DNA of 64,000 nt from an uncultured Acidobacteriota bacterium (GTDB taxonomy: Bacteria > Acidobacteriota > Thermoanaerobaculia > Multivoradales > SZUA-115), in contig CAWDVR010000002.1 in NCBI GenBank assembly GCA_963805975.1, positions 1,120,001 through 1,184,000 on the forward strand, given 5' to 3'. Positions 31,486 to 43,097 of the stretch are shown piece by piece; the stretch's first letter is position 1, and every line of letters begins with the position of its first letter. The notes beneath the pieces are model-generated. The model searched no databases, was not told the origin of the DNA, and saw only the letters and a program-made list of their open reading frames with translations. The position numbers were made by a program, and so were the translations under genes.

Positions 31486-31728
31486 GATATTGAAAAGCGA
31501 CATTCCCGCTGGCGGCCCGTTACCAGGACGGTCGTGGCCCGGTTCCGCCGGCAAAGGCAGAGACACAGAGCACAGGCAAATGCACCATCTCAGGGACACA
31601 GCCGCTCCACCCAGCGCCGGCCTGGCCGGTGCCCCATCGTTCGCGGACCCCCTACGCGGCCTCACGGCCGCGTCACTCGGATCGGCCGGCTGCGGCGTCC
31701 AGCCGCAGGGCGGCTAGCCGAGCCCACC

Positions 31729-31765
31729 TGCGCTGTGGCGGGCACGTCCCACCTGCCACAGCGCA
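31729..31765. terminator. Strong hairpin (possible terminator or RNA 3' end)
   Basis: TGCGCTGTGGC...GCCACAGCGCA 11-bp perfect stem; no U-tract. Confidence 0.45.
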
Positions 31766-31829
31766 CTCCCCCTCCTCACCGACGGAAAGTTCAAGCCGGC
31801 GGCAAAAGGCCGCGCGCTATGATCGATCG

Positions 31830-32840
31830 GTGCCGGATGTCACGGACCGCCTGCGACGGCCGCTCCACGATCTGCGGATCTCGGTCACCGACCGCTGCAA
31901 CTTCCGCTGCCCGTACTGCATGCCGCGAGAGGTCTTCGGCCCCGGATTCGAGTTCCTGCGCCGTGCCGAGCTCCTGACCTACGAAGAGATCCATCGCCTC
32001 GCCAGGGTCTTCGTCCGCCTGGGGGTGCGCAAGATCCGCCTCACGGGGGGCGAGCCCCTGGTGCGTCGCGATCTGCCCGAGCTGGTCGGGCTCCTCGCCG
32101 GCATCGAGGGCCTCGAGGACCTGACGCTCACCACCAACGGCACCCTCCTCGCTCCCCTGGCCGCGAAGCTGCGGGCGGCGGGGCTCGACCGCGTCACCAT
32201 CAGCCTCGACTCGCTCGACGAGGCGGTCTTCCGCCGCATGAGCGACACCCACCTGCTGCCCGGCGAGGTGCTCGCCGGCATCGAGGCGGCGGCCGCCGCG
32301 GGCCTCGCGCCGATCAAGGTCAACACCGTGGTGGTGCGCGGCGTCAACGACCACACGATCGTCGACCTCGCCCGCCACTTCCAGGGCACGGGCGTCATCG
32401 TGCGCTTCATCGAGTACATGGACGTGGGCAACAGCAACCGCTGGTGCCTCGACCAGGTGGTGCCGGCGAGAGAGATCCTGGAGCGGATCGGCGCCGAGCT
32501 GCCGCTCGAGCCGATCGAGCCCAACTACCGGGGCGAGGTCGCCCGGCGCTGGCGCTACCGGGACGGGAGCGGCGAGATCGGCATCATCGCCTCGGTCACC
32601 GCCCCCTTCTGCGGCGACTGCAGCCGCGCCCGCCTGTCGTCGGACGGCAAGCTCTTCACCTGCCTGTTCGCGAGCCAGGGCCACGATCTGCGCGCCCTGG
32701 TCCGCGCCGGTCTGAGCGCGGCCGACCTCGAGCGCGAGGTGGCCGCGCTGTGGCGGGCGCGAGGCGACCGCTACTCCGAGATCCGCTCGGAGGCCACCTG
32801 GGAGCGGCAGAAGGTCGAGATGTCGCACATCGGGGGCTAG
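31830..32840 (+). CDS. moaA: GTP 3',8-cyclase MoaA
   Basis: LRISVTDRCNFRCPYCMP (CxxxCxxC), RFIEYMD, FCGDC.R.R, C-terminal MSHIGG; GTG start. Confidence 0.96.
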   Translation: MPDVTDRLRRPLHDLRISVTDRCNFRCPYCMPREVFGPGFEFLRRAELLTYEEIHRLARVFVRLGVRKIRLTGGEPLVRRDLPELVGLLAGIEGLEDLTLTTNGTLLAPLAAKLRAAGLDRVTISLDSLDEAVFRRMSDTHLLPGEVLAGIEAAAAAGLAPIKVNTVVVRGVNDHTIVDLARHFQGTGVIVRFIEYMDVGNSNRWCLDQVVPAREILERIGAELPLEPIEPNYRGEVARRWRYRDGSGEIGIIASVTAPFCGDCSRARLSSDGKLFTCLFASQGHDLRALVRAGLSAADLEREVAALWRARGDRYSEIRSEATWERQKVEMSHIGG

Positions 32841-33718: not shown

Positions 33719-34180
33719 GTGTCAGAAGTTCTCCGCAAGAAGCTCCTGCCGCGCATCGGCTGGCGCGAATGGGTGGCTCTGCCGCGGCTCGGCGTGCCGT
33801 ACGTCAAGGCCAAGGTGGACACCGGCGCCCGCAGCTCCGCCCTCCACGCCTCCGACGTGCGACCTGTGCAGCGCGACGGCGAGCCCTGGGTGCAGTTCCG
33901 CATCCAGCCCTTGCAGCGCGAGGCGCGGTTGTCGGTGCTGGTGGAGGCGCCGCTCGTCGACGAGCGCTGGGTGCGCTCCTCCACCGGCCGGCCCACCCTG
34001 CGGCCGGTGATCAAGACCACGATCACCCTCGGCGGGCGGAGCTGGCCGATCGAGATCACGCTGGTGCGGCGCGACCTGATGGGATTTCGTATGCTCCTCG
34101 GCCGGCAGGCGATCCGGAACCGCTTCCTGGTTCACCCCGGCCGCTCGTTTCTTGCCGGCGGCATGCCCCCATCCCTCTGA
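33719..34180 (+). CDS. RimB-like retropepsin-fold protease (annotated family 'ATP-dependent zinc protease')
   Basis: [29 protein letters not shown] motifs; precedes rimK. Confidence 0.88.
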
Positions 34181-34191
34181 GGAGCTCCATC

Positions 34192-35097
34192 ATGAAGATC
34201 GGCATCCTGTCGCGCGATCCCGCTCTCTACTCCACCTCCCGCCTGCGCGAGGCCGGCGAGGCGCGCGGCCACGAGGTCGAGGTGGTCGACTACCTGCGCT
34301 GCTACATGAACATCACCTCGCGCGAGCCGGCGGTGATCTACCGCGGCCGGCGCCTCCGCTTCGACGCCGTGATCCCCCGGATCGGCGCCACCCACACTTT
34401 CTACGGCACGGCCGTGGTGCGGCAGTTCGAGGTGATGGGCGTGTATCTCGGCCAACGAGTCGCAGGCCATCACCCGCTCGCGCGACAAGCTGCGCTCGCT
34501 GCAGCTCCTCTCCCGGGCCGGCATCGGCCTGCCGGTCACCGGCTTCGCCCACTCGACCAAGGACATCGACGACCTGATCGAGAGCGTGGGCGGGCCGCCG
34601 CTGATCATCAAGCTGCTCGAGGGCACGCAGGGCATCGGCGTGGTGCTCGCCGAGACCAAGCAGGCCGCGGAGTCGGTGATCGCCGCCTTCCGCCAGCTCG
34701 ACGCCAACATCCTCGTCCAGGAGTTCATCAAGGAGGCCGGCGGCGCCGACATCCGCGCCTTCGTGGTCGGCGGCAAGGTGGTCGCCGCCATGAAGCGGCA
34801 GGCGCCGCCCGGCGAGTTCCGCTCGAACCTCCACCGCGGCGGCACTGCCGAGAAGGTGAAGCTCACCCCCGAGGAGCGCTCGATCGCCGTGCGCGCGGCG
34901 AAGACCCTGGGGCTCAACGTCGCCGGCGTCGACCTGCTGCGCTCGAACCACGGCCCGGTGGTGATGGAGGTCAACTCGAGCGCCCGGCCTCGAAGGGCAT
35001 CGAGCGCGCCACGGGGATCGACGTCGCGGCCAAGGTGATCGCGCTGCTCGAAAAGAGCACCCTGCCGGGCAGCACCCAGCCCCGCGTGCAGGGTTAG
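34192..35097 (+). pseudogene. rimK: Ribosomal protein S6 L-glutamate ligase with three +1 insertions (probable assembly errors)
   Basis: [14 protein letters not shown] and DAVIPRIG, then shifted [45 protein letters not shown]; frame restored at GIERATG. Confidence 0.9.
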
Positions 35098-35292
35098 TCG
35101 CTGCCGTAACGTTAGCTCGACCCACCGGCCTATCCCTCGTGCGCTCGCCGGACGAGCGACGCGCGAACGCTCCAAGAGCATGTCCGTGCTCAAGAGAAGG
35201 TTACTGGAAATGAAGCATTGCGCGGCCCGTGACGGAGCAAAAAATCGAGATAGGGTTCAGGGTTCGGGACCGGCAAGCAAGGAGAGAAAGCC

Positions 35293-35556
35293 ATGGACAC
35301 GACTGAGATCCGCGCCAAGATCAAGCAGATCATTGCCAACGTCACCAACATCGATCCCACGAGGATCGGCGATCGCGACTCGTTCATCGACGACCTGAAC
35401 CTCGACTCGCTGTCGCTGCTCGAGATCGGCGTCGACGTGGACTACAACTTCAAGCTCAACCTGCCCGAAGACCGCATGCGCGAGCTGCGCACGGTGGAGG
35501 ACACCACCAACCTGGTGCTGTCGCGGCAGCGCGAGCTGGCGGAGGTCGCCTCCTGA
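35293..35556 (+). CDS. Acyl carrier protein
   Basis: 87 aa, acidic, DLNLDSLSLLE phosphopantetheine Ser motif; AAGGAG RBS. Confidence 0.92.
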   Translation: MDTTEIRAKIKQIIANVTNIDPTRIGDRDSFIDDLNLDSLSLLEIGVDVDYNFKLNLPEDRMRELRTVEDTTNLVLSRQRELAEVAS

Positions 35557-36806
35557 TGCCACGGACGCGGGACGGCCGCCTGCGGGTCGCCGTCACCGGC
35601 ATCGGCGCCGTGACCTCGATCGGCGTCGGCCGCCAAGCGGTGTGGGCGAGCCTGCTCGCAGGCAGGTGCGGCACCTCCCCCGTCGAGTCCTTCGACACCG
35701 GCCGCTACAACGTGAAGCAGGGCGGCGAGATCAAGAGCTTCGCCGCCCAGGGGTATCTGCGGACACTAGAGGCTGCGGCCCTCGGCCGTGCCTCGCAGCT
35801 CGCCGCCGCCGCCGCCCGACTGGCGCTCGAGGACGGCGGGCTCGAGGTGGACGACTTCGAGGCCTTGGGCCTCGACCCGGCGCGCGCCGGCGTCGCCATG
35901 GGCACCACCTCCGGCGAGCCGCAGGAGGTCGAGCGGCTCGACGATCACCTGGTGGCCGGCAACCTGGAGCAGGCGGGGCGAGGGTTCATCCGCCGCTACC
36001 CCTGTCACGTGATCGCCGCCCACGTCGCCGGCGAGGTCGGCTTCGGCGGCGTCAACGTGATGATCCCCACCGCCTGCGCGGCGGGCAACTACGCCATCGC
36101 CTACGCCCTGGACGCGCTGCGGGCCGGGCGCGCGGACGTGATGCTCGCCGGCGGCGCCGACTGCTTCTCGCGCATCACCTACACCGGCTTCGCGCGGCTG
36201 GGGGCGATCGCCCCGGACGTCTGCCGCCCGTTCGACAAGAACCGCCAGGGCATGATTCCCGGCGAGGGCGCGGCCGTGCTGCTGCTCGAGCCGCTGGATC
36301 GCGCCCGGGGGCGCGGCGCCCGGATCTACGCCGAGGTGGCGGGCTACGGCCTCTCCTGCGACGCGCACCACATGACGGCGGCGCACCCGGAGGGGGAGGG
36401 CGCGGCGCGGGCCATGGAGCGGGCGCTCGCGATGAGCGGCCTCACGCCGGCGGACGTCTCCTACGTGAGCGCCCACGGCACCGGCACGCCGACCAACGAC
36501 CGCCTGGAGGCGATCGCCGTCAAGCGGGTGTTCGGCGAGCGCTCGCGGACCACGCCGATGAGCTCCGTCAAATCCATGCTCGGCCACACCATGGGCGCCG
36601 CCTCGGCGATCGAGGCCGCGGTCTGCGCGCTGGCGGTGGCGGAGGACCGCGTGCCGCCGACCATCCACTTCGAAGAGGCCGACCCCGAGATCGAGGTCGA
36701 CTGCGTGCCCAACGTGGCGCGCGACTTCCCGGTCCACGTGGCGATGAACAACGCCTACGCTTTCGGCGGCAACAACGCCTCGACGGTTTTCCGCAAGTGC
36801 AACTAG
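35556..36806 (+). CDS. Beta-ketoacyl-ACP synthase (FabF-like KS), catalytically intact
   Basis: Cys-His-His triad: PTACAAG, SAHGTGT, KSMLGHT; AFGGNNA. Confidence 0.92.
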   Translation: MPRTRDGRLRVAVTGIGAVTSIGVGRQAVWASLLAGRCGTSPVESFDTGRYNVKQGGEIKSFAAQGYLRTLEAAALGRASQLAAAAARLALEDGGLEVDDFEALGLDPARAGVAMGTTSGEPQEVERLDDHLVAGNLEQAGRGFIRRYPCHVIAAHVAGEVGFGGVNVMIPTACAAGNYAIAYALDALRAGRADVMLAGGADCFSRITYTGFARLGAIAPDVCRPFDKNRQGMIPGEGAAVLLLEPLDRARGRGARIYAEVAGYGLSCDAHHMTAAHPEGEGAARAMERALAMSGLTPADVSYVSAHGTGTPTNDRLEAIAVKRVFGERSRTTPMSSVKSMLGHTMGAASAIEAAVCALAVAEDRVPPTIHFEEADPEIEVDCVPNVARDFPVHVAMNNAYAFGGNNASTVFRKCN

Positions 36807-38050
36807 GCAGCGGCGAGCGGCGCGTGGTGATCACCGGGGTGGGATTGATCTCCCCCCTGGGCGACTCCGTGTGCGCTTTCAACGAGTCTTTGCGCGCCGG
36901 CACCGTGGCCCTGGGGCCGGTCGAGCTCTTCCCGCTCGACGGCCTGCCGCCGTACCACGCCGGCGAGATCAAGGGGTTCGACCCGGCGACCTACTTCGGC
37001 GACCGCAACTACCGGCCCCTCGACCGCAACTCGCGCCTCGCGACCGTCGCCGCCCAGTTGGCGCTCAGCGCGAGCGGGCTCGCCCTCCCCGCGGCGCGAA
37101 GCGAGCGCATCGGCCTCGTGCTGGGCACGATGTTCGGCAGCGTACGCACCATCGCCGAGTTCGACCGCCGCGGCCTGACCGCGGGCCCGTCTTACGTCAA
37201 GCCGCTCGACTTCGCCAACAGCGTGATCAACGCCCCGGCCGGCCAGACCGCGATCTGGCACGGGCTGGCCGGCGTCAACTCGACGATCACCGGCGGCGCC
37301 ACGGCCGGCGTGCAGGCGATCGCCTACGCCGCGGACCTGATCCGCGCCGGCCATGCGCCGGTGCTCCTCGCCGGCGGTGCGGACGAGCTGTCGTACGAGT
37401 CGCTCCTCGGCTTCGACCGTGCCGGTCTCCTACATCCCGCGGGCGACGGCTTTCCCGTGCCCTTCGCGAGCGGCCGCGCCGGCTTCGCGCTGGGCGAAGG
37501 CGCCGCGTTGCTGGTGCTCGAGGAGCGGACCTCGGCCGAGCGCCGCGGGGCGCCGATCCTCGCCGAGGTCTCCGGGCACGGCTCCGCTTTCGACACTTCG
37601 CTCGGCACCAGCGAGAGCGCTGCGTCCGAAGCCCTGGAACGCGCCATCCGCCTGGCCCTCGACGATGCGGGGATCGACGTGGCGGAGATCGGTGCCATAT
37701 CTTGCGGTGCCGCCGGCAGCGTCGCCGGGGACCGCGCCGAGGCGCTGGGGATCGCGGCGGCGCTGGGCGCGGCGGCGCGCCGGGTGCCCGTTTTCGCGGT
37801 CAAGGCCCACCTCGGCGAGACCCTGGGGGCGGCGGGCGGCTTCCAGGCCGCCGCGCTCCTGGGCGCTTTCGCGAGCGGCACCGTGCCCGGCATCCCCGGC
37901 CTCGGCAACCACGGCCTCGCGAGCACCGATCCCGAGATCCCGCTGGCTCTCGGTTCCGCGCCGCGCGCCGCCGAGGTCCGCCACGGCCTGGTCACGGCGA
38001 TGGGGCTCGACGGCCAGGTCTCCGCCGTCGTCCTGTCGAGACCCGTATGA
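36797..38050 (+). CDS. Catalytically inactive KS homologue (chain-length-factor-like)
   Basis: RRVVITGVG..SPLG and GEGAALLVLE retained, but Cys replaced (TGGATAG) and both His replaced (ISCGAAG, KAHLGET). Confidence 0.85.
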   Translation: MQLGSGERRVVITGVGLISPLGDSVCAFNESLRAGTVALGPVELFPLDGLPPYHAGEIKGFDPATYFGDRNYRPLDRNSRLATVAAQLALSASGLALPAARSERIGLVLGTMFGSVRTIAEFDRRGLTAGPSYVKPLDFANSVINAPAGQTAIWHGLAGVNSTITGGATAGVQAIAYAADLIRAGHAPVLLAGGADELSYESLLGFDRAGLLHPAGDGFPVPFASGRAGFALGEGAALLVLEERTSAERRGAPILAEVSGHGSAFDTSLGTSESAASEALERAIRLALDDAGIDVAEIGAISCGAAGSVAGDRAEALGIAAALGAAARRVPVFAVKAHLGETLGAAGGFQAAALLGAFASGTVPGIPGLGNHGLASTDPEIPLALGSAPRAAEVRHGLVTAMGLDGQVSAVVLSRPV

Positions 38051-38562
38051 AGAGCGCTCGCCGGCGGCTGTGCCCGACGCTCCTGGCCGTGCTCGGCCTG
38101 CTCGCACTGGCCGGAGGCTGCCGGCGCGACCTCGGGCCGACGATCGCGGTCGGCGAGCCGGCGCCCGTCTTCGAGCTGGACGACCTCTCCGGCGGCACCC
38201 TCGGCAGCACGGAGCTGGCCGGCGAGCTGGTGGTGGTCAACTTCTGGGCCACCTGGTGCGGCCCTTGCCGGCGGGAGATCCCGGCTCTCAAGGAGCTCGA
38301 CGCGCAGCCGGACGTGCGGGTGGTGGGCATCAGCCTCGACATCGATGCCACTGCAGAGGTGCAGAAGTTCGTGGACAAGAACCGGATCGGCTACACGGTG
38401 CTCCTCGGCAACGAGGCAGTGGCGGGGAGCTATCGGGTGACGGCGATCCCCACCACCGTGGTGCTCGACCGCGCGCAGAAAGTGGTGGGCGTCTACCGCG
38501 GGCTGGTCTCCCGGCGGACGCTCGAAGCGGCGCTGGATCGCGCCCGCAAAGCAACGGCTTGA
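38047..38562 (+). CDS. TlpA-family thioredoxin-like lipoprotein
   Basis: Lipobox LAGGC; VNFWATWCGPC..EIP; IPTT motif. Confidence 0.9.
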   Translation: MKSARRRLCPTLLAVLGLLALAGGCRRDLGPTIAVGEPAPVFELDDLSGGTLGSTELAGELVVVNFWATWCGPCRREIPALKELDAQPDVRVVGISLDIDATAEVQKFVDKNRIGYTVLLGNEAVAGSYRVTAIPTTVVLDRAQKVVGVYRGLVSRRTLEAALDRARKATA

Positions 38563-38599
38563 GAGCGATCGAACATCGGGTTCGAGGAAGGAGCTGGCG

Positions 38600-40414
38600 A
38601 TGAAAGACAAGGCATTGCAACACCAGAAGAGCAAGCGCATGCCGGAGGACGGCGAGCACTTCGACGTCGCCATCCTGGGCGGCGGTCTCGCCGGCGCGTG
38701 CCTGGCGCGCCAGCTCCTGCTCTACAGTGAAAAAAAAGTCGTCATCATCGACAAGCGCGAGGAGCTGCCGGCACCCGGCCAGAAGGTCGGCGAGGCCACG
38801 GTGCAGGCCTCGGCCTTCTACTACAGCAAGGTGCTGGACCTCGAAGAGCACCTGCTCTGCGACCACCTGATGAAGTACAACCTCCGCTTCTACTGGAAGT
38901 CGGCCGGCCGCGACAACCGCAACATGGAGGACTTCGGCCAGGGCTACATCCGCTATCTCTCGAACATCGCCTGCTACCAGCTCGACCGCAACCGCATCGA
39001 GGCCGAGACGCTGCGCCTGAACCTCGAGAACGAGCGCTTCACCCTGGCGGCGCCGACGAAAAACCTCGACATCCAGCTCGCCAAGCCGGGCCCCCATCGC
39101 CTGAGCTTCGACCGCGCCGACGGCGGCAAGGTGAACCTCTCGGCCGATTGGGTGGTGGACTGCTCCGGCCGCGCCCGCATCCTGGCCCACAAGATGGACC
39201 TCGGCCGGCCGGGCTCGATCCGCCACGGCTCGATCTTCATGTGGGTCGACGGCCTGCTCAACATCGAGAAGCTCACCGACCTGCCGCGGCTCGAGATGAT
39301 CCGCAAGCGCGACCGCGCCGCCCTGGGCCACCTGCCCACCTGGCTCGCCACCAACCACTTCTGCGGCGAGGGGTTCTGGTTCTGGGTGATCCCCCTCCAG
39401 GGCCAGACCAGCCTCGGCCTGGTGTTCGACCGCGCGATGATCGACCATCGCGACGTCAACACCCCCGAGAAGCTCATCGACTGGGTGTGCCGCGAGTTCC
39501 CGCTCTTCGAGCGCGACCTGCCGCACCGCAAGATCAACCACTTCGCCGGCATCCCGGACTACGGCTACGACTGCGCGCAGACGATCAGCGCCGACAAATG
39601 GGCCATGGCCGGCATGGCGGGCCGCTTCTCGGACCCCCTCTACTCGCCGGGCGGCGACCTGATCTCGATCTACAACACGCTGATCACCGACGCGATCCTG
39701 ACCGACGACCCGGAGGAGCTCGCCACCAAGGTGCGCTCCTACGAGCAGGTGATGCGCGCCGCCTACGAGGCCTACGTGCCGAGCTTCGCCGACTCCTACA
39801 ACGTGCTCGGCGACCAGGAGGGCTACTGCCTCAAGTACACCTGGGAGCTCGCCATCTACTTCTCCTTCTACGTCTTCCCGTTCATCAACGGCCTCTTCAC
39901 CGACCGCCGCTTCCTGCCCGCGTTCTTCAACCGCTTCGGCCGCCTGGGGCCGATCAACCGCAACCTGCAGACGTTCATCGCCGAGTACGCGCGCTGGGCC
40001 AAGACCGGGCTCACGGCGCCCGAGGAGCCGATCTTCCACGACTTCACGGAGCTGCGGCCCCTGGCGGCGGCGGCCGAGACCTTCTACAAGATGGGCATCG
40101 AGGTCGACGAAGCCAAGCAGGTGCTCGCGGAGCAGCTCGTAAACCTCGAGGAGCTGGCGCGCTTCACCCTCGCCTACCTCACCTCGGTGGTGGTGGGCGA
40201 CGAGGCGGCCGTGCACCACAAGGAGCTCGTGGAGTCGATCGACCTCAACGACTACCGCTTCGACCCCGAGGCGTTGCGCCAGAGGTGGGCGATGGCCGGG
40301 AAGCCCTCCGGGAGCTATGCCTGGCGCCTCGACCCGCGGGCGGCCGAGAAGTTCCGTCGGGCCCGGCGGCTGACCCACGCGGACGTCGAGGCGGAGGCGA
40401 TGGCCGTCTCGTGA
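38600..40414 (+). CDS. Flavin-dependent halogenase-like protein
   Basis: GGGLAG FAD motif, KVGEAT, YQLDR, VDCSGR, halogenase fingerprint WFWVIP (WxWxIP), F.DPLYSPG. Confidence 0.8.
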   Translation: MKDKALQHQKSKRMPEDGEHFDVAILGGGLAGACLARQLLLYSEKKVVIIDKREELPAPGQKVGEATVQASAFYYSKVLDLEEHLLCDHLMKYNLRFYWKSAGRDNRNMEDFGQGYIRYLSNIACYQLDRNRIEAETLRLNLENERFTLAAPTKNLDIQLAKPGPHRLSFDRADGGKVNLSADWVVDCSGRARILAHKMDLGRPGSIRHGSIFMWVDGLLNIEKLTDLPRLEMIRKRDRAALGHLPTWLATNHFCGEGFWFWVIPLQGQTSLGLVFDRAMIDHRDVNTPEKLIDWVCREFPLFERDLPHRKINHFAGIPDYGYDCAQTISADKWAMAGMAGRFSDPLYSPGGDLISIYNTLITDAILTDDPEELATKVRSYEQVMRAAYEAYVPSFADSYNVLGDQEGYCLKYTWELAIYFSFYVFPFINGLFTDRRFLPAFFNRFGRLGPINRNLQTFIAEYARWAKTGLTAPEEPIFHDFTELRPLAAAAETFYKMGIEVDEAKQVLAEQLVNLEELARFTLAYLTSVVVGDEAAVHHKELVESIDLNDYRFDPEALRQRWAMAGKPSGSYAWRLDPRAAEKFRRARRLTHADVEAEAMAVS

Positions 40415-41847
40415 AGAGCGAGCCCGAGCTCGTGGACTTAGCAGCCGGTCTCGAACGGATCTTCGATCGGGTGCCCGAGGAAGGCTCGGGGCCGGTCGCG
40501 GGCATCGAGGGCGAGCTACCCGCGTGGCTTCGCGGCACGCTGTACCTCACGGGCCCGGCGCGCTTCCACCGCGGCGAGACGCGCTATCGCCACTGGCTCG
40601 ACGGCGACGGCATGGTCTGCGCCCTCCGTTTCTCCGAAGAGGCTGGCACCTCTAGCAGCACCTTCGCCAGCCGTTTCGTGCGCAGCCACAAGTGGGTGGC
40701 CGAGGAGGGTGCCGGCCGCGCCCTCTTCCGCACCTTCGGCACGCGCTTTCCCGGCGACCAGCTCCTGCGCGGGGTGGCTCTCGCTTCGCCGGTCAACGTC
40801 TCCGTGGTGCCCTTCGCGGGCAAGCTCCTCGCGTTCGGAGAGCAGGGCCTGCCCTGGGAGCTCGACCTGACGACCCTCGAGACCCGTGGCGAGCACACCT
40901 TCGGCGGCAGGCTCAACCCTATCTCGCCGCTCTCCGCCCACCCGAAGATCGACTGCACGACGCACGAGATGCTCAACTTCGGCATCTCCTACGCGACGGC
41001 CGAGCCCACGCTGACGCTCTACCGCTTCGCCGCGGACGGCCGGCTCCTCTACCGCCGGCGACACGGCCTCGAGCTGCCCTACTCAGTGCACGACTTCAAC
41101 CTGTCGCAGCGCTACGCCGTGCTCCACCTCGGCCCGTACCTCATGGACGTGGGCAGGTTCATGAAGGAAGGCGCCACCGTGATGGAGTCGCTCTCCTGGG
41201 AGCCCGAGCGCGGCAGCCGCCTCGCCGTCTTCTCGCGCGAGACCGGTGACCTCGTCTGCTCGGTGCCGGTGGGGAGCGGCTACTGCCTGCATCACGTCAA
41301 CGCCTTCGAAGACGAGGACGGGCGGCTGGTGGTCGACCTCCTGGAGCTCGAAGAGCCCGTGTACAAAGACTACGAGCCTCTGCCCCAGCTCTTCGTCGAT
41401 GTCCGCCCCGCGCACCCGACCCGCTTCGTCGTCGACCCCGTCACCGGCACGCTGCTCGAAACGATCCGTCTCCCCTTCACCCTGGCAGCGGACTTCCCCG
41501 TCCACGACCCGGCCCTCACCTGCCTCCCCTACCGCCAGTTCTGGATGCTCGGGATCTCCACCACCGGGAAACCGGGGCGAAAGTTCCTCGACCGGCTGTG
41601 CCGGGGGGACTGGGAGACGGGCGAGGTAGAGACCATCTACACCCCGCCTGCCGGCAGCTTCCTCGCCGGCGAGCCGGTGTTCGTGGCGGCGCCGGACGGA
41701 AGCGAGGAGGAGGGCGTGGTGCTGGTGCCCGAGCTGAACCTCGAAACCGGCACCACGAGGTTCCTGGTGGTGGGAAAGGACGTGGCCAGGATCGAGCTGG
41801 GGCGAGCGATCCACACCTGCTTTCATGCCGGATGGAGTTTCGGCTGA
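40411..41847 (+). CDS. Carotenoid cleavage oxygenase (RPE65/CCD/lignostilbene dioxygenase family)
   Basis: GELPAWLRGTLY..GP, HWLDGDGM, four iron-ligand His (SAHPK, VHDF, HHVNAF, FHAGW), GEPVFV; GTGA overlap with the halogenase. Confidence 0.9.
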   Translation: MKSEPELVDLAAGLERIFDRVPEEGSGPVAGIEGELPAWLRGTLYLTGPARFHRGETRYRHWLDGDGMVCALRFSEEAGTSSSTFASRFVRSHKWVAEEGAGRALFRTFGTRFPGDQLLRGVALASPVNVSVVPFAGKLLAFGEQGLPWELDLTTLETRGEHTFGGRLNPISPLSAHPKIDCTTHEMLNFGISYATAEPTLTLYRFAADGRLLYRRRHGLELPYSVHDFNLSQRYAVLHLGPYLMDVGRFMKEGATVMESLSWEPERGSRLAVFSRETGDLVCSVPVGSGYCLHHVNAFEDEDGRLVVDLLELEEPVYKDYEPLPQLFVDVRPAHPTRFVVDPVTGTLLETIRLPFTLAADFPVHDPALTCLPYRQFWMLGISTTGKPGRKFLDRLCRGDWETGEVETIYTPPAGSFLAGEPVFVAAPDGSEEEGVVLVPELNLETGTTRFLVVGKDVARIELGRAIHTCFHAGWSFG

Positions 41848-42085
41848 TGGTTTCCCCCGCCGGTTCGCCTTCCAGGCAGATTCACCGCCGATTCGCCCGC
41901 TTCCTCGGAGATCGAAGTTCGCTGACAAGGCCGGCACTTTCTTTCCGCCTCTGATCGGAACTTGGCGGCCGAGGAGTGGGAGCGAGGTAATTTTTCGCCT
42001 CCCCCGGTTAGAGATTCTGACGCAAGCGCCTCGGGCAGAAAGACTTACCCTTGCCTCTGCCCCACGCCGCACCTACATTCCTGGC

Positions 42086-42492
42086 GTGCGAAGCCTGGAT
42101 CCGATGCGGATGGCGCTGCGGCTGCTGCGCGAGCGTCGGGGCTGGAATCAGCAGGAGCTGGCGGACAGAGCCGGCAGCACCAAGAGCAAGATCTCCACTT
42201 ACGAAACCGGTACGACGGAGCCCACCCTCACCACTCTCGACGGGTTGCTGCTGACGCTCGGGTCCAGCTGGCTCGAACTCTCTCTCCTCGCCCAGATGCT
42301 CGAACCGGCCGTCGCCTCTCTCGCAAGCAGAGGCGAGGGCTCGCCCGCGATGGCCAGTGTGCCGCCTGCCAGCACGCCGGTGGTCGGGGCGCTGCGCCTC
42401 AACCTCGCAGCGGCGGGAGACTGGTTGAGGCCCTGGAGCAGAACCTCCTCGCCCCTCCCTCAACCACCTCCGAGGTGCCAGCCGACTCGTAA
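42086..42492 (+). CDS. XRE-family HTH regulator, copy 1 (apparent 1-nt deletion near 42417)
   Basis: LRLLRERRGWNQQELA..AG....IS.YETG..EP; the C-terminus matches paralog 45512 only after a frame shift (RLVEALEQ). Confidence 0.8.
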
Positions 42493-42605
42493 CGGCACTC
42501 CGGTGTAGCTTCCAATCGAAGCGGTGGGCACCCCTCCTCGTGGAGGCTCAGCTTTCCGAAGCAATCGAGGCCAGGATCGATTGGTGATGGTACATTGCTC
42601 GCTCG

Positions 42606-43097
42606 ATGAAGGGCGAGATCGAGCGAGTCCTCGGAGCTCTGAACAGAGCCGAGGTCCGCTACTTGGTCGTGGGTGGCGTGGCTGTCGTGCTTCATGGCTA
42701 TCTTCGCACCACCAGGGACCTGGATCTGGTCGTCCAACTGGGAACGGAGAACCTCAAGAAGGCCCTCGAGGCCCTGAAGAACCTCGGCTTCGAGCCCGCC
42801 GTGCCGGTTCCGATCGAAGCCTTCGCGAATCCGGTAGCGCGGGACTCGTGGATTCGAGACAAGAACCTATTGGTCTTCTCGCTCTGGCATCCGCAGAGAC
42901 CTGGATTCCAGGTCGACCTTTTCGCGGAGGAGCCGTTTGACTTTGAAGAGACCTATTCTCGCGCCCTCCGGGTTCCGCTCGACAGCACCACGGCGATGGT
43001 TGTCTCGGCACATGACCTCATCGCTCTGAAGCGCCGAGCGGGCCGGCCCCAGGATCTCGCCGATATCGACGCGCTGGAAGAACTGGAGGAGGAATAG
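42606..43097 (+). CDS. Nucleotidyltransferase-fold protein (DUF6036-like)
   Basis: YLVVGGVAVVLHG..RTTRDLDL (GG and DxD), VDLF, LIALKRRAGRPQDLADI. Confidence 0.85.
   Translation: MKGEIERVLGALNRAEVRYLVVGGVAVVLHGYLRTTRDLDLVVQLGTENLKKALEALKNLGFEPAVPVPIEAFANPVARDSWIRDKNLLVFSLWHPQRPGFQVDLFAEEPFDFEETYSRALRVPLDSTTAMVVSAHDLIALKRRAGRPQDLADIDALEELEEE

Follow-up and report, generated by a model that had tools for sequence, protein, structure and literature searches.

We analyzed a 64 kb stretch of DNA (hereafter the window; C2:1120001-1184000, ~70% G+C) from a six-contig, 5.36-Mb genome (completeness 96%) of an uncultured Acidobacteriota bacterium, and found that a six-gene operon on its + strand (35293..41847) belongs to a single conserved functional unit, recognizable by synteny and by joint presence and absence across genomes. 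In order, the operon codes for an acyl carrier protein (ACP), an active ketosynthase (KS), a dead KS partner resembling a chain-length factor (CLF), a predicted TlpA/ResA-type lipoprotein (Tlp), a flavin-dependent-halogenase-type protein (Hal) and a member of the carotenoid-cleavage-oxygenase family (CCD). These are the six gene types that a sequence-only reading of the DNA had named, and Pfam matches, motifs and the third-position GC signal, which backs each of the six frames, recover all of them. Going by the genes alone, we see a roughly even chance that they are the core of a conserved pathway in which the KS/CLF pair would build an acyl or polyenoyl chain of short or medium length on the ACP, Hal would halogenate this chain and the CCD would cut it at a C=C bond. 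By analogy with studied relatives of these enzymes, the product is likely an undescribed lipid-like molecule that is both halogenated and oxidatively cut.

Phyletic distribution and gene neighborhoods of the set

We recorded the distribution of the set in two samples, namely 41 genomes of the same order and 201 genomes spread evenly over the phylum. First, within the order, orthologues of Hal are found in 31 of the 41 genomes, and six of the other 10 have only a paralogue of ~30% identity. The CCD has exactly the same distribution, with 31 carriers and no occurrence in the other 10, while the CLF type (at least 44% identity) is found in 29 of the 31 and in none of the 10, the two misses (G026 and G029) being assemblies of 610 and 850 contigs. 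The co-conservation of Hal and the CCD with the KS–CLF pair, on which the sequence-only reading turned, is thus borne out. Second, three families coded outside the operon are likewise confined to Hal-bearing genomes of the order: an HMG-CoA-reductase-like (HMGR-like) orthologue (at least 54% identity) and a CrtI-like flavoenzyme in 29 of the 31 each, both missing from G037 and G038, and an acyltransferase in 21 of the 31, with none of the three in the other 10. Third, in the phylum sample, Hal, the CCD and the CrtI-like protein (for which seven candidates were scored per genome) all occur in the same 7 of 201 genomes, the other 194 having none of them. Four of these seven carriers lie outside the order: three belong to a single family (f43) and the fourth (G162) shows no clear match to the CLF type or the HMGR-like protein. 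Within one genus (g13), all parts lie within 15 kb in one genome (G025), with the KS-CLF-HMGR-like-CrtI-like block and the Hal-CCD pair on opposite strands, and none are present in another (G015). The set is a lineage-wide trait of one acidobacterial order that is patchy in the phylum, and not a sporadic antibiotic cluster.

Gene order was mapped in 28 loci from the 41 genomes and in 80 from a species-level genome collection, among which 68 unique loci have a Hal orthologue. Genes were called by a codon-position GC score and then clustered, a procedure that missed some genes, such as the CCD of locus L072. The CCD gene comes next after Hal on the same strand in 54 of the 68 unique loci and has another position in 3 more; in the remaining 11 no CCD was called, although five of these end at most 1.5 kb from Hal and one (L072) has a CCD by tblastn. 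At least two KS-family genes were called in 27 loci and only one in 6; 29 loci have an ACP gene. The pairwise identities of Hal and the CCD are correlated (r = 0.76 over 52 loci), a value reached by 0 of 999 permutations. Recurrent additional families among the 68 loci are the HMGR-like (12 loci), CrtI-like (13) and acyltransferase (14) proteins, and the fullest loci (L036 and L097) have the order ACP-KS-CLF-HMGR-like-CrtI-like-acyltransferase-Hal-CCD. As it recurs in dozens of genomes, the six-gene arrangement is not a product of chance. The compact operon of the sequence-only reading therefore stands as one conserved unit, but as a trimmed part of a larger conserved set that also includes the HMGR-like, CrtI-like and acyltransferase genes.

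Hal and the CCD form the tightest pair of the set, and no KS-family gene was called in 35 of the 68 unique loci, up to ~9 kb on either side. The two could accordingly be seen as a pair working on its own to degrade or detoxify compounds from outside, e.g., plant phenolics, with the KS genes as mere neighbors; the sequencing runs listed for this DNA, none of them an RNA run, are labelled soil metagenome, with one cave metagenome, at shares of at most 0.30. However, the joint presence and absence with the CLF, HMGR-like and CrtI-like genes argues against such a pair. So does family f43, whose three genomes keep the genes in a reshuffled order, with the CCD by the KS-CLF pair (10-15 kb away) and Hal near the HMGR-like and CrtI-like genes. 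We consider the stand-alone explanation highly improbable.

The acyltransferase protein has ~550 aa, and its C-terminal half is a PlsC-type domain; the N-terminal half has no Pfam match at E = 1, and a Rossmann-like start, which was an impression by eye only, has been withdrawn. Selenocysteine, considered for apparent stops inside some CrtI-like and acyltransferase matches, was also dropped, on the strength of an acyltransferase case: the frame in locus L024 is open to its own stop, so the TGA flagged there probably lies past the gene end.

In seven loci from other acidobacterial lineages (L053, L054, L058, L071, L076, L078 and L092), the Hal-CCD genes are flanked by recurrent proteins of ~416 and ~421 aa with no Pfam or NCBIfam match, and also by a DinB-family protein and a Na+/H+ exchanger.

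The carrier protein and the ketosynthase pair

The ACP (35293-35556, +; 87 aa) has its DSL serine at Ser39 and matches the PP-binding domain of Pfam with 36.9 bits, while every NCBIfam ACP model remains below cut-off. The KS (35556-36806, +; 416 aa) and the CLF (36797-38050, +; 417 aa) each contain both ketoacyl-synthase domains (Pfam). In the former, the Cys-His-His triad is intact, with the Cys in PTACAAG, the first His in HGTGT and the second in LGHTMG, and the protein scores 396 bits against the NCBIfam fabF equivalog, under the cut-off of 493.75; in the latter, the triad reads Ala/Gly/Glu. Related loci code for 63 unique KS-family proteins, of which 32 have the intact triad and 31 are degenerate, and Glu stands at the second His position in 31 of 31 unique triad-less partners. 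One subunit with the full triad beside an adjacent triad-less paralogue is the make-up of a KS/CLF-type pair, and we infer from their likeness to relatives of the PDB 9S5H type that the two subunits would act as a heterodimer.

The best solved relative of the KS is chain B of PDB 9S5H (465 bits), ahead of Iga11 of the ishigamide system (6KXD, 323 bits), FabF (~300 bits) and the actinorhodin KS (227 bits). For the CLF it is chain C of the same structure (240 bits), the next being FabF (177 bits), with Iga12 at 90 bits. Of the proposal that the pair is type II polyketide synthase (PKS)-like, the KS/CLF-type organization thus holds, but both subunits are closer to 9S5H than to a classical type II PKS.

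These scores bear on a reading in which the KS, CLF and ACP form a minimal PKS whose chain, left unreduced, would close to a phenol or alkenyl-phenol, Hal chlorinates the ring and the CCD acts as a lignostilbene/isoeugenol oxygenase on the side-chain C=C bond. Consistent with this, no ketoreductase (KR) or dehydratase (DH) belongs to the set, the best structural matches of Hal are the phenol-type halogenases CtcP and PltM, and the best NCBIfam match of the CCD is the lignostilbene dioxygenase model, at 137.9 bits far under the cut-off of 800. Yet the fatty-acid-type and the highly reducing pairs (465 and 323 bits) are far closer relatives of the KS than the actinorhodin KS is, and the CLF has Ala at the Cys position, where aromatic CLFs typically carry Gln. 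Further, in departure from a classical aromatic type II PKS, no cyclase or aromatase gene is present among the loci mapped, and the solved stilbene oxygenases score only 87-100 bits against the CCD, compared to 171 for an apocarotenoid oxygenase. An aromatic product is, therefore, distinctly unlikely in our estimate.

Outside the window, at C2:524050-526438, the same genome has a second KS beside a weak KS-like protein, 40% and 33% identical to the operon pair, with a fatty-acyl-reductase-type gene (NAD_binding_4) ~4 kb downstream.

Relationship to the anammox Cluster I proteins

The structures 9S5H and 9S5I contain an ACP beside a KS and a KS-like chain, and chain C has Val at the Cys position. 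They probably represent the amxFabF2/amxFabFmut pair of anammox bacteria, for which the accessible part of a preprint reports a heterodimer and a complex with C8-ACP (10.64898/2026.05.19.726425); we infer the link because the main text, in that part, gives no PDB code. According to the same portion of the preprint, most amxFabFmut proteins carry Val for Cys, and the pair is active only when both subunits are together, decarboxylates malonyl-ACP and prefers C6-C8 over C16 probes; Phe135 and Val139 of the dead subunit are tunnel residues near the C8 chain (10.64898/2026.05.19.726425). The operon CLF has Phe and Val at the places aligned to these residues, a tentative mapping, since each of the two is shifted by one against the printed numbering.

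In Kuenenia, Cluster I (kuste3603-3608) comprises amxACP, amxFabZ, amxFabF2, amxFabFmut, a phytoene-dehydrogenase homologue and a B12 radical-SAM enzyme, as given in the accessible text of the sources (10.64898/2026.05.19.726425; PMC2649909). The acidobacterial set resembles it in two respects, and may do so in a third. First, both have an active and a triad-less KS, and for the operon pair the anammox-type structure is the best PDB match by a wide margin (465 vs 323 bits for the KS; 240 vs 177 bits for the CLF). Second, both have an ACP of their own. Third, a CrtI/phytoene-dehydrogenase-like flavoenzyme, a possible counterpart of kuste3607, belongs to the conserved set. There are also several differences. 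Neither FabZ nor a B12 radical-SAM enzyme is found in the operon or among its recurrent neighbors, a genome-wide search not having been made, and the absence of both from the mapped loci indicates that the operon is not a ladderane cluster; the radical-SAM gene in the window (31629-32840) is of the MoaA type, as its Mob_synth_C domain shows. The set here adds Hal, the CCD, the HMGR-like protein and the acyltransferase. Anammox bacteria are anaerobes, whereas the studied relatives of the halogenase-type and CCD members use O2. The ACP is not especially close to 9S5I_E and 7AUF (34-37 bits), scoring 51 bits to AcpM. Finally, the KS gene precedes the CLF gene here, the reverse of the anammox order in the accessible preprint text (10.64898/2026.05.19.726425).

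Taken at its most specific, the comparison suggests an oxygen-using sister of the Cluster I machinery, in which an amx-type KS/CLF pair and a CrtI-like desaturase would build a conjugated chain on a private ACP, and Hal and the CCD would halogenate and cleave it, the result being a lipid or aldehyde of a new class, halogenated and derived from a polyene. We offer this version tentatively, as possible though somewhat unlikely. Were it true, the set would be the first non-anammox system in which the enzyme chemistry of Cluster I could be worked out. The KS/CLF pair would in any case seem to be the closest non-anammox relative of the pair proposed for ladderane synthesis. The anammox pair has so far been inaccessible to genetics or whole-pathway reconstitution, as stated in the accessible preprint text (10.64898/2026.05.19.726425), and the product of a KS/CLF and desaturase of this type could be revealed by a relative that has a CrtI-like partner and can be expressed heterologously.

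Hal, a halogenase-type flavoprotein

Hal (38600-40414, +; 604 aa) matches the Pfam Trp_halogenase profile with 44.6 bits, the match being limited to the first 104 profile positions, and has a helical C-terminal domain. The halogenase hallmark noted from the sequence alone is intact in an alignment of 27 family members: the WxWxIP motif reads FWFWVIP in the operon protein, with W247, W249, I251 and P252 invariant (27/27). The GxGxxG motif is GGGLAG, as in the operon Hal, or GAGLAG in all 27. A Lys in MKYNLRF, also invariant in 27 of 27, pairs in HMMER alignments with a PltA Lys and with the second Lys of the KK in CmlS, which we take to be the catalytic K71 of that enzyme. The flavin GD motif, which defines a wider flavoprotein class and canonically runs Gly-Asp-Ala ... 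Asp-Pro, has its first Asp replaced, by Met in the operon Hal and three relatives and by Glu in 23 of the 27; the downstream DP of the motif is kept in 26, with DA in locus L037. A second invariant Lys of the family lies in QKVGE, where CmlS and PltA carry Arg or His.

The structure predicted from the 27 sequences (pLDDT 90.3, pTM 0.91) points to the flavin-dependent halogenase fold. With a single exception, the uncharacterised flavoprotein 3NIX, the Foldseek matches of the model listed at ranks 1-43 are halogenases, among them CtcP, PltM, ChlB4, PltA, CmlS, CndH, Bmp2, Mpy16, RadH, MalA and FasV, with CtcP and PltM as the best; the first monooxygenase in the list (KMO) stands at rank 44. Hal thus shares with CmlS, PltA, PltM, CtcP and ChlB4 the fold (Foldseek E ~1e-21), GxGxxG, WxWxIP and the CmlS-aligned Lys. 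In contrast, it is only 16-19% identical to known halogenases, reaches sequence E-values of 2e-9 at best, and differs from them by the replaced GD Asp and the additional QKVGE Lys. The 66 unique Hal orthologues form a single clade (support 0.90) whose stem is long, at 1.42 substitutions per site; 28 relatives of ~30% identity, the paralogue of this genome among them, fall outside it. In a search of 1.84 billion representatives, full-length Hal scores drop from at least 543 to at most 342 bits.

The replacement of the GD Asp, the restricted Pfam match and the weak NCBIfam matches to the maturases LodB, GoxB and QhpG, which are not halogenases, raise the prospect that Hal does not halogenate at all. 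It might instead act as a hydroxylase or epoxidase, or as some other flavin oxidant with the same fold, giving a halogen-free product, and the lack of any halide-related gene nearby fits such a role, which can be combined with any of the other readings. On the other hand, both WxWxIP and the CmlS-aligned Lys are invariant in all 27 sequences, and the structural matches listed are halogenases, bar one, down to the rank just above KMO. On this evidence a non-halogenating Hal is quite improbable, and halogenation remains the preferred assignment.

The Hal paralogue of this genome (C1:1422171-1423739) was excluded as a member of the system, being ~30% identical and set among unrelated neighbor genes. 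Separately, in Variovorax and Piscinibacter (L126 5420-10704; L104 5541-10734), Hal relatives of ~30% identity follow genes for a major facilitator superfamily transporter, a KS and a short Ketoacyl-synt_2 protein, a second recurring KS-halogenase association distinct from the operon type.

The oxygenase and the isoprenoid alternative

The CCD (40411-41847, +; 478 aa) contains a full-length RPE65 domain (Pfam; 316.8 bits against a cut-off of 27, covering profile positions 3-467 of 469). Its four-His iron-binding site, likewise noted in the sequence-only reading, is intact: in an alignment of 28 orthologues, His177, His227 and His294 are invariant and His472 is kept in at least 90%. The first three align with His stretches of the solved oxygenase, and His472 lies beyond the end of that alignment (residue 440). 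Among candidate second-shell glutamates, E144 and E312 are invariant as well, and E421 is kept in at least 90% of the 28 sequences. The best solved relative is the Synechocystis apocarotenoid-15,15'-oxygenase (171.5 bits), an enzyme of linear polyenes, which also suits the polyenoyl chain of the preferred reading. No NCBIfam equivalog is reached (137.9, 130.8 and 121.7 bits against cut-offs of 800, 650 and 675, the first being the lignostilbene dioxygenase model), 8'-apocarotenoid dioxygenase included. The full-length RPE65 domain and the four-His site are thus common to this protein, the Synechocystis oxygenase (2BIW, 6C7K) and the CCD/RPE65 enzymes at large, from which it differs in being paired with a halogenase-type gene.

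This relationship is the starting point for an isoprenoid alternative, in which the CCD, CrtI-like and HMGR-like proteins act on a mevalonate-derived, carotenoid-like polyene, and the ACP, KS, CLF and acyltransferase provide an esterified acyl chain, the outcome being an acylated and possibly halogenated apocarotenoid. Several further features speak for it: the partner flavoenzyme belongs to the crtI family (156.5 bits), an acyltransferase is part of the set, and in the HMGR-like protein, which matches a solved class I HMG-CoA reductase with 299 bits, the motifs TTEG, GMNMIVK, GQD and GAH are retained. Nevertheless, both the CrtI-like and the HMGR-like proteins score under their NCBIfam cut-offs, and the phytoene/squalene synthase family (PF00494) does not track the set, being present in 7 of the 10 set-free genomes of the order and not found in 4 of the 31 carriers. 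The genome studied here has no crtI_fam match at cut-off, its only PF00494 gene stands apart from any carotenoid genes, and it possesses a second, separate HMGR homologue. We regard this alternative as unlikely, and continue with the ACP-built chain as the preferred substrate.

A candidate pathway

By analogy with the anammox pair, the KS/CLF heterodimer would prime by decarboxylating malonyl-ACP and would then extend the chain on its private ACP. As the set has no KR, DH or enoylreductase (ER) of its own, keto-reduction and dehydration would be borrowed from housekeeping fatty acid synthesis (FabG and FabZ). The CrtI-like flavoenzyme, coded on contig C3 in this genome, could add or move double bonds. 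Hal, which would need reduced flavin, O2 and halide, may halogenate an electron-rich carbon such as that of an enol or polyene, and the CCD may split a conjugated double bond, giving carbonyl products. The HMGR-like enzyme would presumably reduce a thioester, and in the fuller clusters the acyltransferase could place an acyl chain on a lipid acceptor.

A number of observations weigh against this reading. The operon is without a KR, DH, ER, malonyl transferase or thioesterase, so the chain length and the reduction state are guesses. The anammox pair, in the accessible text of the preprint, gave no product in vitro longer than acetoacetyl-ACP (10.64898/2026.05.19.726425). To this may be added the many Hal loci, noted above, in which no KS-family gene was called, and the replaced GD Asp of Hal, by reason of which its handling of the flavin may differ from that of the studied halogenases. 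The related genomes are not independent of each other, and the phyletic figures thus describe a pattern, not probabilities. Finally, in the genome at hand, the CrtI-like match falls into two pieces with a frame change near C3:587080, due either to a true break in the gene or to an indel of the assembly, and the query used did not turn up the acyltransferase. The pathway of this genome could have been trimmed or be partly broken, an assembly indel being the other possibility.

Among described systems other than anammox Cluster I, the ishigamide proteins Iga11/Iga12 (6KXD) are similar in having a KS/CLF-type pair with its own ACP, and the Iga pair makes polyenes. Aryl-polyene-type clusters carry acyltransferases, and xanthomonadins are brominated. 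The acidobacterial loci mapped differ from the ishigamide, aryl-polyene and xanthomonadin systems in having no dedicated KR, DH, adenylating enzyme, aryl starter, exporter or LolA-like genes, and we know of no CCD in highly reducing type II PKS or aryl-polyene clusters. In line with the earlier statement that no characterized cluster was known to have this combination, literature searches with subscription journals largely outside their coverage returned no matching described cluster, and no paper on the KS/CLF-halogenase-CCD combination or on the Hal-CCD pairing.

If the proposed pathway is correct, a conserved route to a halogenated, oxidatively cut lipid-like metabolite would exist in one order of soil Acidobacteriota, as well as in a few lineages beyond it. 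This would represent a new natural source of organohalogens in soil and a new enzyme pairing, that of a flavin halogenase with a CCD-type oxygenase.

The set in this genome and the layout of the operon

In this genome, the HMGR-like (C3:585210-586475) and CrtI-like (C3:586478-588032) genes lie together on another contig than the operon, adjoining a nitrilase-family gene; a nitrilase-family gene also stands after the cluster in several relatives. In a sister genome (G001; L024 5640-7690), the gene for the ~550-aa acyltransferase stands between CLF and Tlp. Given the clean ATGA at 38047 and no copy found elsewhere in the present genome, the gene appears to have been cleanly lost here.

The Tlp gene that follows the CLF gene (38047-38562, +; 171 aa) codes for a protein that matches the AhpC-TSA (78 bits), Redoxin (70 bits) and Thioredoxin families of Pfam, all above cut-off. 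Its N-terminal signal, read by sequence, ends in LAGGC, and its CxxC is present as WCGPC, as befits a TlpA/ResA-type protein; the NCBIfam models for ResA (84 against 170 bits) and TlpA (56 against 230 bits) are both under cut-off. The gene is found in 6 of the 68 unique loci, which belong to distant lineages, and is immediately upstream of Hal in 5 of them.

The sequence-only reading had almost all of the genes joined by overlapping stop and start codons. Three overlaps are certain, namely TGATG at the ACP/KS junction, ATGA at CLF/Tlp and GTGA at Hal/CCD. A fourth, KS/CLF, is possible, and holds only if GTG 36797 is the start of CLF, with GTGs 36821 and 36824 as alternatives. The Tlp/Hal junction, however, is a gap of 37 nt, in which GGAAGGAG, a ribosome-binding site, lies ahead of the Hal ATG. 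An intergenic leader (35098-35292, +) precedes the operon, and within it AAGGAGAG lies ahead of the start codon of the ACP gene. The leader contains no sigma-70-like promoter site (0 found vs 0.3 expected), on account of which the operon promoter was not located, and a scan of 34900-42700 gave 0 promoter-like sites. The same scan found no + strand terminator-like site inside the operon; the 4 terminator-like sites that it did return lie without exception on the minus strand, a count within the shuffle expectation.

The operon lies inside a single + strand gene run of ~29.6-45.9 kb, as traced by third-position GC, and is flanked by housekeeping or unrelated genes (Pfam). Upstream are genes for enolase, FtsB/DivIC, MoaA, an M23 peptidase and a RimK_N-domain protein; downstream are those for a helix-turn-helix (HTH) protein, a DUF6036 nucleotidyltransferase, an ABC-F ATPase, a second HTH protein and a TonB-dependent receptor. 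The first two downstream genes (41825-43097), coding for an Xre-type HTH protein and a DUF6036/AbiEii-like nucleotidyltransferase, have a toxin-antitoxin-like look and are not conserved beside the cluster in relatives. Directly upstream of the operon, a 442-aa frame (33769-35097) has as its sole match the 87-residue RimK pre-ATP-grasp domain (aa 142-227), with no ATP-grasp domain matched, and the third-position GC signal changes frame within it at ~34150-34450.

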